Of a stretch of 19,222 nucleotides of DNA, positions 10,046-12,688 are shown in pieces (position 1 is the stretch's first letter; each line of letters starts with the position of its first letter). Origin of the DNA: a virus (Duplodnaviria; Heunggongvirae; Uroviricota; Caudoviricetes); the IMG/VR virus record IMGVR_UViG_2526164693_000012; one strand, given 5' to 3'. The position numbers and the translations under genes are program-made. The notes under the pieces are model-generated. The model was not told the DNA's origin, made no database searches, and was given only the letters and a program-made list of their open reading frames with translations.

Positions 10046-11311
10046 TTACTGGGCGTAATTCTGTTTCAGTCCACGGATAAACTGAGATGCAGATGAAGCA
10101 CTTTCATCTCTGGCCTGTTCCCCCCTGGCCTTTTGAATACGGAGAAAATTCGCATACCCGTTCTCCAGCAATTTCTGATTCTGAGGTTCCAGCATTTCAG
10201 GCTGACGGGCCGCTACATTTCTGGCAAATGACAGCTTATCAGGATCATCTCCCGCCCAGTTGATAACCTGTTGCTGAAGTTTTTGTTGCTGAATTTTCTG
10301 TTGATGCGGTTGTGAACCAGTCGCAGCATAATATTCATCCACCGCAGCCTGAGCATTACCGCCATTCTTGATCGCGTCCGCCGCTACGTTGCTGGCCCCC
10401 TTCTGAAGCTCTTTCAGAGAAAGTCCCTGCTGCTTCGGCATAAAATAACCATAATTTTTCGATATCTCTGCAAATTTGCTGCGATCCCTGACCTGAGCGA
10501 TAGCCTTATCAACGGGTATCGCCAGCACGGTTTGATCATCAGGGTGCGCACTGCCGTATTCTGTTACAGGTTTATGCGCGGTGGAGCCATCGCTGTATGT
10601 GAGATCAAGGCCAATAAGTACGTACCCTTCCTGCTGCGCTGGTACGATACTGCCAATCCTGGCCTCTTTTATCGTTTTGTCCCCGGTTGAATCAGGCATG
10701 CCAATACGCTGTTGTAGTTCCGGGGCAAACACGCCGGAAAGCACATCGAGATTTTCCGGGGTATTCAGCGAATCGATCGCCATGTCCGGCTTATCACCAA
10801 AGATTTTTTGCAGGTTGATCACGGCCTGACCCGCTTTCGCTGCATAGCCTTCGTTTGACATAAGAATTAATGGATGTCCCTTTGGCAGCTGCCCGAACAG
10901 ACGCGTTGCAGCCTCCTGATCGCCAGCCTCAATTGCTTTTCCAAGCGCTTCCATTAGTGGCTGGCTATGGGCAATCATATCGTTATACTCAAGCCGTCGC
11001 TGGTTGTATTTCTGCAACTGGAGTCGCTGCTGCTCCATACCCAGTGACGCATTCCGGTAATTCTGGTTAGCGTTAAACTCCCTCTCCTTCAGTGCATAAT
11101 TACGGTCGTCAACTTTGGCTCTGTAATCAAAGTTCCGCTGATCAACGTTTTTATTATGTTCAAACTGAGACTGCGCAAACTCAAAATCGCGCTCGTTATT
11201 TTTCTGTTGCCGGGCAAGCTGTGCTTCACGCAGACCAAGCTCCTTACGACGGGTCATTGCCTGGTCAACGGTGCTGAATCCGGCAAGTAACCCCTGTGCA
11301 AATCCGCTCAT
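10046..11311 (-). CDS. Hypothetical protein, 421 aa, Gln/Asn-rich with predicted coiled-coil character
   Basis: Long ORF; SD AAGGAG 7 nt upstream of the ATG, overlapping the stop of the preceding gene (TAAGGAG); composition rich in Q, N, E, R with many QQ/NQ runs. Confidence 0.8.
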   Translation of the reverse strand: MSGFAQGLLAGFSTVDQAMTRRKELGLREAQLARQQKNNERDFEFAQSQFEHNKNVDQRNFDYRAKVDDRNYALKEREFNANQNYRNASLGMEQQRLQLQKYNQRRLEYNDMIAHSQPLMEALGKAIEAGDQEAATRLFGQLPKGHPLILMSNEGYAAKAGQAVINLQKIFGDKPDMAIDSLNTPENLDVLSGVFAPELQQRIGMPDSTGDKTIKEARIGSIVPAQQEGYVLIGLDLTYSDGSTAHKPVTEYGSAHPDDQTVLAIPVDKAIAQVRDRSKFAEISKNYGYFMPKQQGLSLKELQKGASNVAADAIKNGGNAQAAVDEYYAATGSQPHQQKIQQQKLQQQVINWAGDDPDKLSFARNVAARQPEMLEPQNQKLLENGYANFLRIQKARGEQARDESASSASQFIRGLKQNYAQ

Positions 11312-11321
11312 TCACCACTCC

Positions 11322-11573
11322 TTAAAACAAAGAACCAGCAATGCCGCCAATTACTGCTCCAGCAACAGCACCAACAGGACCACCAACGGATGCGCCAATA
11401 GCCGCCCCCGTACCAATGCCCGTACCGATATTCTGCTTGTTCTGCGCTTTCTGTTGCGCCGCCATCTGTTTGTTCGCAGCCTCAATTTCTTCACGTCGTC
11501 TGTCTGCGTCACTTATTCCCTGTAATGCCTCACGCCGCGACTGATTTGCAATATCCAGTAAACCGTATCCCAT
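11322..11573 (-). CDS. Small protein, 83 aa, with C-terminal glycine-zipper membrane segment
   Basis: C-terminus GTGIGTGAAIGASVGGPVGAVAGAVIGGIAGSLF is a GxxxG-repeat glycine zipper; N-terminal half is charged and helical-looking; SD AAGGGGG overlaps the upstream stop. Confidence 0.75.
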   Translation of the reverse strand: MGYGLLDIANQSRREALQGISDADRRREEIEAANKQMAAQQKAQNKQNIGTGIGTGAAIGASVGGPVGAVAGAVIGGIAGSLF

Positions 11574-11582
11574 ATTGCCCCC

Positions 11583-12029
11583 TTACGCTGCCACCAGTTG
11601 GCCGCCAACACTCAGTTTCTGTCTTGCCGGTGCAGAAGCCCCCGTCAGAATATTCATCTGGCGATCCTGTTCGGCTTCACGGATACCATTTTTCGCGCCA
11701 GCAATTGCCAGGGCATTACGTAACCCCAGCGTATTACTGTCGGGATTATCCGGGCGGTTTACCCCGTATCTCGCCATCTGGTTATCCTGCGCCATCTGCG
11801 CTGTACGGAGACTGGAAGTGGCAAGGCCTCCCACCCGTGCAAGCTGTGCATTCATCAGACTGTTGTTCTCCCCAAGGTCAGCCAGCCTTGCCACGCGGGG
11901 CAAATATCTGGTTCGCCAGTCGTCGTATTGTTGGCGTGTCAGCGCTGCTGACGTCTGCCAGTCACCCTGTGGGCGGTCTGCTCCTGAATAACCAGCCCTT
12001 GCGAGAGTTTCGTATTTGCCATACTCCAT
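11583..12029 (-). CDS. Hypothetical protein, 148 aa
   Basis: ORF with SD GGAGAC 8 nt upstream; its ATG lies 2 nt after the stop of the upstream gene (TAATTATG), indicating translational coupling. Confidence 0.75.
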   Translation of the reverse strand: MEYGKYETLARAGYSGADRPQGDWQTSAALTRQQYDDWRTRYLPRVARLADLGENNSLMNAQLARVGGLATSSLRTAQMAQDNQMARYGVNRPDNPDSNTLGLRNALAIAGAKNGIREAEQDRQMNILTGASAPARQKLSVGGQLVAA

Positions 12030-12031
12030 AA

Positions 12032-12688
12032 TTACAGTCTCCAGTTCTGAGCCTGATGCTGAATGGCATTAGCGCCGGTGCCAGGTGTTTTAGCACCGCC
12101 ACTTCCTCCGCTACCGCCAGCCTTATGCATCGCATATGCACCTGCCGCACCCAGACCAGCGCCAACAAGAGAGGCTCGCCCCTGCTGTTTCGTAAACGCC
12201 GCCTGTGCATCCGATTTAGCTTTTGCCAGACTGCTGTCTGCCAGAGAGTTAAAACTCTGTAACGCATCCGCCTTCTGACCAGAACCGAGAGCAGCAACAT
12301 CCTGTAGCCCGGCAACATACTTATCTGCCTGCGATACCTGCCCCCGTGTGGTTGTGTCAATCTGCCCGGTTACCTGGTCACTCTGGTTCGCATTCATTAC
12401 CGCATTAAAACGACCACTGGATGGGTCAACGCCGGACTGAGCAAGATTACCCGCAAGCTCCTTCCGTGCTTCGCCAAACTGTTTCTGATACCCCAGATTT
12501 GTGGTGCCAGCAATATTGTCGTACTGCTGCTCACTGTTCAGGTCATCGACCTTTTCCATGAAGTTATCTTCAGCCGGGCGGAGGATATTTTTGTAATCCT
12601 GCCACCCTTTCCAGGCCACTTCTTCCTGTGCTATTTGCGCTGCTGTTGGTTTTACTTTGGTATCACCACCGCCTTTACTTCCACCCAT
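12032..12688 (-). CDS. Hypothetical protein, 218 aa, Gly-rich at both termini (N-terminus MGGSKGGGDTKVK...)
   Basis: Start placed at ATG 12688 (SD AGGGGG 5 nt upstream), not at the track's ATG 12763, because a terminator hairpin sits between them; C-terminal Gly/Ala-rich tract GAGLGAAGAYAMHKAGGSGGSGGAK. Confidence 0.7.
   Translation of the reverse strand: MGGSKGGGDTKVKPTAAQIAQEEVAWKGWQDYKNILRPAEDNFMEKVDDLNSEQQYDNIAGTTNLGYQKQFGEARKELAGNLAQSGVDPSSGRFNAVMNANQSDQVTGQIDTTTRGQVSQADKYVAGLQDVAALGSGQKADALQSFNSLADSSLAKAKSDAQAAFTKQQGRASLVGAGLGAAGAYAMHKAGGSGGSGGAKTPGTGANAIQHQAQNWRL

Follow-up and report, generated by a model that had tools for sequence, protein, structure and literature searches.

In phage P22 the needle gene (26) is followed by genes 14 (151 amino acids, aa), 7 (229 aa), 20 (471 aa) and 16 (609 aa), and mutants in the ejection proteins make DNA-filled, non-infectious particles. 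The order in T7 is 12, 13 (138 aa), 14 (196 aa), 15 (747 aa) and 16 (1,318 aa), with gp14-16 forming a trans-envelope channel, and in N4 it is tail tube (54), plug (53), 52 (150 aa), 51 (644 aa) and 50 (3,500 aa), where N4 and the Schitoviridae use gp52 as the outer-membrane complex, gp51 as the periplasmic tunnel and gp50 as the giant virion RNA polymerase; gp51 and gp52 of N4 have been assayed in planar lipid bilayers. In GP4 and DC1, of the GP4/Bcep22-like phages, the layout is nozzle, a protein of about 110 aa, an acetyltransferase, a 277-/331-aa virion protein, a PAPS reductase, a 509-/528-aa virion protein and a "DarB-like" giant. The DNA treated here is a 19,222-nucleotide stretch (the window) of the IMG/VR virus record IMGVR_UViG_2526164693_000012, and the subject is a row of four small genes, g1 to g4, together with the large gene downstream of them (the giant) and the gene upstream (g0, ORF75). 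It is likely that g1-g4 and the giant, and probably g0 with them, make up the cassette of internal virion or "pilot" proteins for DNA ejection in short-tailed Shiga-toxin (Stx) phages of the Sp5/933W/phi24B type.

The 2.6-kb region of the four small genes is 100% identical to that of the short-tailed Stx phages VT2-Sakai/Sp5, Stx2 II, the 933W type and PA, and 186 phage records match it at 80% identity or more; this identity makes the window late-region DNA from an Sp5/VT2-Sakai/933W-type Stx phage. All genes of interest are on the minus strand. In the VT2-Sakai record g1-g4 are orf67-70 and the giant is orf71, every one annotated "hypothetical". The Sp5 numbering (Mondal et al. 2016, PMC5155283) is ORF76/ECs1238 for g1, ORF77/ECs1239 for g2, ORF78/ECs1240 for g3, ORF79/ECs1241 for g4 and ORF80/ECs1242 for the giant; that of phi24B (bioRxiv 10.64898/2026.04.10.717836) is gp51, gp50, gp49 and gp48 for g1-g4, gp47 for the giant and gp52 for g0.

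Conservation of the gene set and order

Eighty loci came from a pattern scan of IMG/VR with the g4 alignment; their six-frame open reading frames (ORFs) were scanned with hidden Markov models, and 73 had enough flanking sequence for use. The gene set and its order are conserved: nozzle, needle, g0, g1, g2, g3, g4 and giant follow one another in 72 of the 73, with g1, g2 and g3 upstream of g4 in that order likewise in 72. The downstream ORF matches the window giant in 71, the giant of the Aeromonas phage differs in sequence, and one locus (L076) is without a giant. Among the 77 loci whose upstream flank reaches 6 kb or more, 75 have g0; in conservation and synteny it equals g1-g4, and the Aeromonas and Vibrio phages carry homologues of it. 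An original prediction, made from the letters of the window, had proposed a five-gene module of the four small genes and the giant, to be checked by co-occurrence. All five are indeed conserved together, in distant lineages too; the module, however, has a sixth conserved member, g0.

By tblastn, both g1 and g4 have distant homologues in about 100 Vibrio phages and in the Aeromonas phage phiARM81mr. The phiARM81mr layout is nozzle, tail-tip fibre, proteins of 119, 212, 124, 85 and 466 aa and a 3,190-aa giant; that of Vibrio D87 is nozzle, fibre, (62 aa), 131, 201, 117 and 77 aa, an HNH endonuclease on the opposite strand, 467 aa and a 3,066-aa giant, and all five small proteins of these loci align with their window counterparts. 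The divergent lineages, at 28-34% identity in g4, come from Yersinia, Serratia, Pectobacterium, Brenneria, Aeromonas and Vibrio; the genome scan puts prophages with the cassette in the first five of these genera. The gene order holds in Escherichia as well. In the divergent lineages g0 lies directly after the needle gene.

This synteny bears on a reading of the four as non-virion accessory genes (morons, a bacteriocin-like peptide, a transcription factor) whose virion signal is contamination. Such a reading can draw on weak Pfam matches of g3 to Bacteriocin_IIc and to a Gly-zipper family, on the labels "Transcription factor?" and "bacteriocin" in public records and the phi24B preprint, and on the terminator-like hairpins that flank the block, as they often do with morons. 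The block, however, keeps a fixed place within the structural module across distant phages, whereas the genuine morons nearby (Lom, the 205-aa and 92-aa genes, inserts on the opposite strand) differ from phage to phage; g4 is essential, the products have high spectral counts and discrete gel bands, and family scans of g1-g4 found no DNA-binding or regulator domain. This explanation is largely refuted and keeps a very low probability.

It was also found that conservation, and not spacing, is what goes beyond chance. The four ORFs of the original prediction match annotated coding sequences (VT2-Sakai orf67-70, Sp5 ORF76-79), and it regarded them as joined tightly, through overlapping stop and Shine-Dalgarno signals, and probably made in fixed ratios. 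The g1/g2 junction is as it described (TAATTATG, TAA-TT-ATG, with GGAG 9 nucleotides upstream of the ATG), but TAAGGAG, which it counted twice, occurs once, at g3/g4 (TAAGGAGTGGTGAATG, TAA-GGAG-TGGTGA-ATG), and the other junction reads TAAGGGGG, being at g2/g3 TAAGGGGGCAATATG (TAA-GGGGG-CAAT-ATG). Nor is the giant tightly joined to the four: a 69-nucleotide gap with a hairpin lies between. The mechanical ORF start of the giant, at 10015, falls within that hairpin; its true start is the ATG at 9976, 69 nucleotides past the g4 stop and with a GGAG Shine-Dalgarno ahead, which yields the published 2,793 aa. Elsewhere in the operon nozzle and needle overlap by 4 nucleotides and neighbouring gaps are 5-14 nucleotides. 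Tight coupling was rejected as evidence for a module, because short spacers are normal across neighbouring late genes and spacing alone is no sign of anything special. Rough spectral counts in phi24B give no sign of equal amounts of the g1-g4 products. Late transcription modified by Q should pass through terminator-like sites in lambdoid phages, and the same would hold for the hairpins here. The g1 start was set at 12688 in preference to a longer TTG ORF at 12763, because the Aeromonas and Vibrio phage homologues begin at the same Met.

Composition also sorts the genes. There is no Cys in the 3,663 residues of g1-g4 and the giant, against an average of 1.56% in the neighbouring proteins (nozzle, 92-aa, 205-aa, Lom and g0). 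P22 gp7, gp20 and gp16, T7 gp15 and gp16, N4 gp51 and gp52, and the GP4 and DC1 homologues are likewise free of Cys, and the small gene that heads each cassette (P22 gp14, T7 gp13, g0) has 3-4. Absence of Cys independently groups g1-g4 and the giant with periplasm-crossing proteins, and g0 with the non-ejected helpers; complete absence could serve as a cheap marker for ejected proteins in other phages.

Virion proteins and deletion phenotypes

The phi24B preprint (bioRxiv 10.64898/2026.04.10.717836) solved the T=9 capsid, portal, two adaptor rings, nozzle (gp57), needle (gp56) and fibres, and proposed that gp47, the giant, is an encapsidated ejection protein, abundant in the proteome and invisible in the map. 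Products gp48-gp51 are unmentioned in its text and are not in the atomic model; a diffuse density in the adaptor lumen is gone in emptied particles, which made up about 40% of those in the preprint. Its supplementary proteome, read directly, lists all four small products in purified virions. In the batch digest, peptide-spectrum matches (PSM) numbered 179 for gp48 (g4), 83 for gp50 (g2), 82 for gp51 (g1) and 6 for g3 (an 86-aa ORF there), beside 101 for the portal, 42 for the nozzle and 32 for the needle, and in gel bands gp48 and gp51 gave sharp peaks of 496 and 180. Spectra per residue for g4, g1, g2 and the giant equal or exceed those of the portal. Scaled to 12 portal copies, the counts per residue correspond to about 36 copies of g4, 48 of g2, 32 of g1 and 23 of the giant, to be read as orders of magnitude only, such estimates being off 2-4-fold for proteins of known copy number.

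Mondal et al. (PMC5155283) made in-frame, marker-free deletions of each late gene of Sp5. Without ORF79 (g4) or ORF80 (the giant) neither plaques nor lysogens formed, a defect complemented in trans, but DNA was packaged in DNase-resistant form and the heads looked normal; g4 and the giant are essential at a step later than packaging. Deletion of ORF76 (g1) caused a strong but leaky loss of infectivity, and ORF75 (g0), ORF77 (g2) and ORF78 (g3) are absent from the list of essential or impaired genes in that study. The suggestion in the original prediction of ejection-type or membrane-active virion proteins, outside the usual lambda tail functions, gains support from synteny, proteomics, essentiality, the gp7 motif links described below and the Cys-free makeup; the comparison with lambda is in any case beside the point, the virion being that of a short-tailed T=9 podovirus.

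These mutants were originally read otherwise, as lacking tail-assembly or tail-structural factors, with g4 and the giant building or stabilising the short tail and g1-g3 as minor tail or neck parts. Particles with ORF79 or ORF80 deleted package DNA and failed to bind an antibody against the tail fibre (ORF67), reported as data not shown and for which the authors placed both genes under "tail formation" with no defined role (PMC5155283); the genes are surrounded by tail genes, nozzle and needle coming immediately before them in the relatives, and there is unassigned density in the adaptor lumen. The phi24B map, however, explains portal, adaptors, nozzle, needle and fibres without g1-g4 or the giant, although spectra per residue for g4, g1, g2 and the giant are at portal level or above, and neither Pfam nor PHROG nor NCBIfam gave a match to tail proteins or to the tail assembly chaperones that the original prediction had named as its counter-case. 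The phage has neither a long tail nor a tape measure. The antibody result is moreover negative, and loss of internal proteins could secondarily destabilise tails. A role in building the tail is an unlikely explanation of these findings.

Essentiality also bears on a second alternative, in which the small proteins, comparable to Hdf, DarA and DdrA with P1 DarB, are head-internal loading partners of a giant anti-defence protein, packaged and perhaps injected without forming a DNA conduit. The giant does resemble "DarB-like" giants, DarB of P1 depends on several partners packaged with it, the proteins turn up together in virions, and the small genes co-occur strictly with the giant gene even where its sequence differs (Aeromonas phiARM81mr). 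The Dar proteins are nevertheless dispensable on non-restricting hosts, whereas g4 and the giant are essential for infection of K-12 from a K-12 lysogen, where restriction is no issue. Further, to infect a Gram-negative host a short-tailed phage requires conduit proteins, for which the late region holds no other candidates, and the glycine-zipper and gp7-like motifs point to membrane activity. That the four serve loading alone is improbable.

The small proteins and the giant

The makeup given in the original prediction was confirmed: g1 has Gly-rich ends (Table 1, and further ...GGSGGSGG...), g3 a C-terminal glycine zipper, and g4 is Q/N-rich (10.9% Q, 6.2% N) and helical. By profile comparison g1 matches phrog_8003 (E 9.6e-9, PHROGs) and, at HHalign 95.8-97% over 131-140 columns, the GP4 277-aa protein and DC1 gp64 (331 aa), with the core W..Y...P ... 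GVDPxSG; reciprocally, the GP4 277-aa protein matches phrog_611 (E 4e-10). On these profiles g1 is a member of a virion-protein family common to GP4 and Bcep22-like phages, and mass spectrometry of JC1 found both the counterparts of the g1 homologues and the 510-aa protein encoded immediately ahead of the giant associated with the virion. The g1 profile search adds Salmonella, Chania and Paramixta. An AF2 model of the g1 monomer was poor (four helices, predicted local distance difference test score, pLDDT, 49.5), as would be expected of proteins existing only as transient oligomers, which is weak evidence for such a state. No 19-residue Kyte-Doolittle window of g1 reaches 1.2, and HHalign gave 1% or less against the T7 gp14 and N4 gp52 profiles, where only the size fits (218 aa, in a class of about 150-240 aa). 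In one E. coli prophage-derived contig (L036, 6885-7990) g0 is followed directly by g2, a natural deletion of g1 that would fit either the leaky phenotype seen without ORF76 or decay of the prophage.

The remaining small proteins upstream of g4 share features with g1 or with P22 gp7. HHalign values for g2 are 63% to DC1 gp64, in the same core as g1, and 35% to g1 itself, making g2 a possible diverged paralogue of the g1 core. The glycine zipper of g3, with GxxxG repeats visible directly and kept in all homologues, matches Pfam PF13441 (Gly-zipper_YMGG) at E 9.4e-6 and 25.7 bits, below the 28.9-bit gathering cut-off, and zippers like it match tape-measure and internal-virion-protein PHROGs. The g3 and gp7 families both close with ...G(S)LF, and HHalign pairs the last 20 residues of g3 with the very end of gp7 at 93.8% (E 1.8e-7), a match confined to 20 low-complexity residues; the g1 N-terminus (GKGGG...W..Y...P) aligns weakly with that of gp7 after removal of the first 20 residues (HHalign 27-46%, E 2e-4 to 7e-4). 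We infer that a gp7-like protein, intact in GP4/Bcep22-like phages, is represented here by g1, g2 and g3. Nearly all members of the three families start Met-Gly (MGKGGG..., MGYA.DT..., MGYGL.D...), which could be an incorporation or processing signal. In three loci (L078 9487-9981, L079 9551-9982, L080 9568-9978) the g3 homologue has a Gly/Ala-rich expansion of 40-80 residues between the N-terminal helix and the conserved zipper tail, taking it from 83 aa to 163 aa.

An AF2 model of g4, built on a 47-sequence alignment, was better defined (pLDDT 85.7) and renders the predicted 126-residue N-terminal helix as a single helix of residues 4-129, followed by a compact helix/beta domain with an invariant DG..P.T..D motif and long helices to the C-terminus. 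The all-helical, poor model of g1 and the long helices of g4 would suit refolding of the proteins during ejection. Among 1.84 billion representative clusters, 66 at E <= 1e-3 make up the small g4 family; a homologous-protein search returned near-identical E. coli entries only, sequence-profile and structure comparison found no solved structural relative of g4, and profile searches of PDB sequences with g1 and g4 gave no match. A 1,386-aa representative with a g4-like N-terminus was considered as a g4-giant fusion and ruled out, having no similarity to the giant and no Pfam domain.

Product g0 (3 Cys) is absent from the phi24B proteome table and is not among the essential genes; with no profile similarity to P22 gp14 or T7 gp13, it is tentatively placed, by a position and size like those of these two, as a non-packaged helper. 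Its assignment as a GNAT was dropped after a negative HHalign comparison with the GP4 acetyltransferase at the equivalent position. Besides the matches cited, scans of g1-g4 and g0 against Pfam, NCBIfam and PHROGs gave families of "unknown function" or sub-threshold low-complexity matches (EcsC, LTM, Bacteriocin_IIc, PdsO). HHalign of g0-g4 was negative against T7 gp13-16, P22 gp14, gp20 and gp16, N4 gp51 and gp52 and the neighbours in Bacillus phage Dartukuta, and a locus scan with N4 gp51 returned N4 itself only. Because their scores fall short of formal family membership, g1-g4 should not be filed in PF25688 or in gp20-like or gp14-like families.

The giant carries four Pfam domains, LPD5 (1051-1200, 153 bits), LPD1 (1361-1440, 84 bits), MuF_C (1750-1839, 64 bits) and LPD38 (2476-2681, 164 bits), all exceeding their cut-offs of 27-27.6 bits, and on that domain content it is counted as a bona fide polyvalent protein, a class predicted to enter the host along with the DNA (Iyer et al. 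2017). It is a mosaic: the C-terminal 950 aa are common to giants of Ralstonia GP4, Burkholderia Bcep22-like and Bacillus podophages, many enterobacterial relatives (among loci L056-L087, which were compared) share only the N-terminal and middle parts, and the 3,190-aa giant of Aeromonas phiARM81mr matches none of the three parts at E <= 1e-3. MuF_C is PBECR, a predicted RNase domain, according to Iyer et al. (2017), whereas the phi24B preprint calls it a metallopeptidase and suggests that a peptidase digests peptidoglycan (bioRxiv 10.64898/2026.04.10.717836). The zinc-peptidase-like motif of the giant, HEWFH, is instead in the LPD5-LPD1 region, where there is a sub-threshold NCBIfam CLCA_X match (1182-1437). 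With MuF_C being PBECR and the HEWFH motif elsewhere, the idea of a peptidoglycan-digesting peptidase is doubtful. Like g1, the giant has Gly/Ala-rich segments, a motif that may point toward membranes.

Table 1. Features of the window, with positions counted from its first letter
Feature	Positions	Strand	Characteristics
g0 (Sp5 ORF75/phi24B gp52), 133 aa	12782..13183	-	conserved first gene of the block
hairpin, intrinsic-terminator-like, with U-run	12711..12730	-	directly upstream of g1; -16.5 kcal/mol, z = -4.2
g1, 218 aa	12032..12688	-	Gly-rich N-terminus MGGSKGGG, conserved GVDPxSG motif, Gly/Ala-rich hydrophobic C-terminal segment
g2, 148 aa	11583..12029	-	possible diverged paralogue of the g1 core
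g3, 83 aa	11322..11573	-	N-terminal helix, then C-terminal glycine-zipper hydrophobic tail ending ...GSLF
g4, 421 aa	10046..11311	-	Gly-rich N-terminus (MSGFAQGLLAGF), 126-residue helix, small helix/beta domain (TYSDGS..PVT), C-terminal helices
hairpin, intrinsic-terminator-like, with U-run	9994..10013	-	in the 69-nucleotide g4-giant gap; -14.2 kcal/mol, z = -2.5
giant, 2,793 aa	1595..9976	-	large polyvalent protein: LPD5, LPD1, MuF_C, LPD38
nozzle (phi24B gp57), 567 aa	18322..16619	-	context gene
central needle (phi24B gp56), 422 aa	16622..15354	-	context gene

Around and within the block, other genes vary. The Lom, 92-aa and 205-aa genes (13613-15339, minus strand) stand between needle and g0 only in E. 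coli Stx phages and therefore, since g0 directly follows the needle gene in the relatives, represent an insertion into a contiguous block; the phi24B authors suggest that the 205-aa product and a 75-aa product cap the needle as a BamA binder (bioRxiv 10.64898/2026.04.10.717836). The g4/giant junction (window 9977-10045) is a hot spot of insertion, with 0.3-3.4 kb of extra DNA in other lineages, some of which encodes, on the opposite strand, a 276-aa membrane/coiled-coil protein and a 166-aa secreted protein, and the HNH endonuclease of Vibrio D87 is inserted between g3 and g4; locations listed for inserts at the g4/giant and g3/g4 junctions are L060 11383-13035 and L004 17224-18015. The tail-gene module of Aeromonas phiARM81mr includes, at L003 5876-7787, annotations for a "23S rRNA-intervening sequence protein" and for a reverse transcriptase of retron type.

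Proposed ejection pathway and comparison with known systems

Several observations weigh against an ejection cassette. The main standing conflict is the reported loss of tail-fibre labelling from particles with ORF79 or ORF80 deleted. Classical P22 ejection-protein mutants keep their tails. Single deletions of g2 and g3 have no reported defect, though g2 is abundant in virions; redundancy among gp7-like parts may account for this. The presence of g3 in virions comes down to essentially one peptide (13 PSM in total), and virion mass spectrometry by itself leaves sticky contaminants possible. The phi24B preprint (bioRxiv 10.64898/2026.04.10.717836) dismissed "a homolog of a bacteriocin" as a contaminant, by annotation alone, and by elimination this is g3. 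Apart from the local HHalign alignments of g3 and g1 to gp7, g1-g3 gave no match to PF25688, the gp7 family, at E <= 0.1 or to phrog_598 at E <= 10, g1 is without the 4-5 predicted transmembrane helices typical of T7-gp14-like proteins, and g4 showed no sequence, profile or fold similarity to P22 gp20, T7 gp15 or N4 gp51. Finally, the head-internal location of the products, their release on infection, their entry into membranes and the division of labour among them are what we infer.

Taking these points into account, an ejection cassette remains the likely explanation, and it suggests the following pathway. The products would be made late, from a Q-antiterminated transcript reading through the two terminator-like hairpins, and loaded into the procapsid or the tail lumen at roughly tens of copies per virion. 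When the needle leaves the nozzle, the cassette proteins would be expelled ahead of the DNA. Proteins g1 and g3, which appear to carry the two ends of a P22-gp7-like protein (Gly-rich N-terminus and glycine-zipper C-terminal tail), would together with g2 insert into and breach the outer membrane, and g4, with its N-terminal helix of about 19 nm, may oligomerise into a periplasmic tube, as P22 gp20, T7 gp15 and N4 gp51 do. The giant would follow, like T7 gp16 and N4 gp50, complete passage of the inner membrane, and carry enzymatic and anti-defence domains into the cell.

A more far-reaching version, which is possible but held only tentatively, is that of an effector-injecting ejectosome of a distinct family, in which an ancestral gp7-like outer-membrane protein has been split or duplicated into g1-g3, g4 is a periplasmic tube of new fold, and the essential 308-kDa giant is at once the inner-membrane end of the channel and a multi-enzyme cargo threaded into the cell. 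If this were true, Stx phages and their GP4/Bcep22-like relatives would deliver genome and anti-host effectors with a single machine, neither task being separable from the other.

Short-tailed Stx phages spread Shiga-toxin genes among E. coli, and the cassette offers concrete candidates for the trans-envelope channel that follows BamA binding. It may also explain why the giant gene is essential, and it links the Stx phages to the GP4, Bcep22-like, Aeromonas and Vibrio podophages. Ejection machines of this kind are known, and the cassette is not surprising in principle, but it had been undescribed in this medically important group. Two of the four proteins appear to have been mislabelled in the phi24B study, g4 (gp48) as "Transcription factor?" in the proteome and g3 as a bacteriocin-like contaminant, with public records giving "hypothetical".

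Compared with P22, the cassette occupies the same position after the needle and has the same order of sizes, from a Cys-containing helper of about 150 aa through proteins of about 220 and 450 aa to the largest, with the ejected members free of Cys. It differs in that gp7-like features are spread over two or three proteins (g1, g2, g3), in that the last component is a 2,793-aa polyvalent protein and not the 609-aa gp16, and in the reported loss of tail-fibre antibody binding in the Sp5 mutants. T7 shares the operon logic, the rising sizes, the requirement for infectivity (here of g4 and the giant) and the largely Cys-free makeup; there is, however, no homology, g1 is without the several membrane-spanning helices predicted in gp14-like proteins, and no ordered core stack is seen in phi24B, whose portal has a barrel, as in P22.

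N4 resembles the Stx phages in its T=9 capsid, the Sp5 major capsid protein having the N4-type domain capsid_maj_N4, in the order tail tube, plug, small, medium and giant, in a luminal density lost on ejection, and in a giant of about 3,000 aa that is packaged and ejected last; but the giant here has LPD and MuF_C domains in place of an RNA polymerase, and there are four small proteins instead of two. In P1, too, a giant packaged effector, DarB, depends on small co-packaged partners (Hdf, DarA, DdrA), but P1, a myovirus, does not need its Dar proteins for DNA entry, whereas g4 and the giant are essential here. The GP4/Bcep22-like phages show true homology to g1, a shared C-terminal region of the giant, the layout of nozzle, small genes and giant, and proteins of a virion-associated class (DC1 gp64 and gp66, JC1 gp64 and gp68). 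They differ in the interleaved acetyltransferase and PAPS reductase genes, in having no separate g2 or g3, and in a g1 homologue that itself carries the C-terminal glycine-zipper tail; between their 509-/528-aa proteins and g4 only the Gly-rich N-terminal motif is shared, not significantly. In summary, by its place in the late region the cassette appears to be the positional equivalent of genes 14-7-20-16 of P22, 13-16 of T7 and 52-51-50 of N4.

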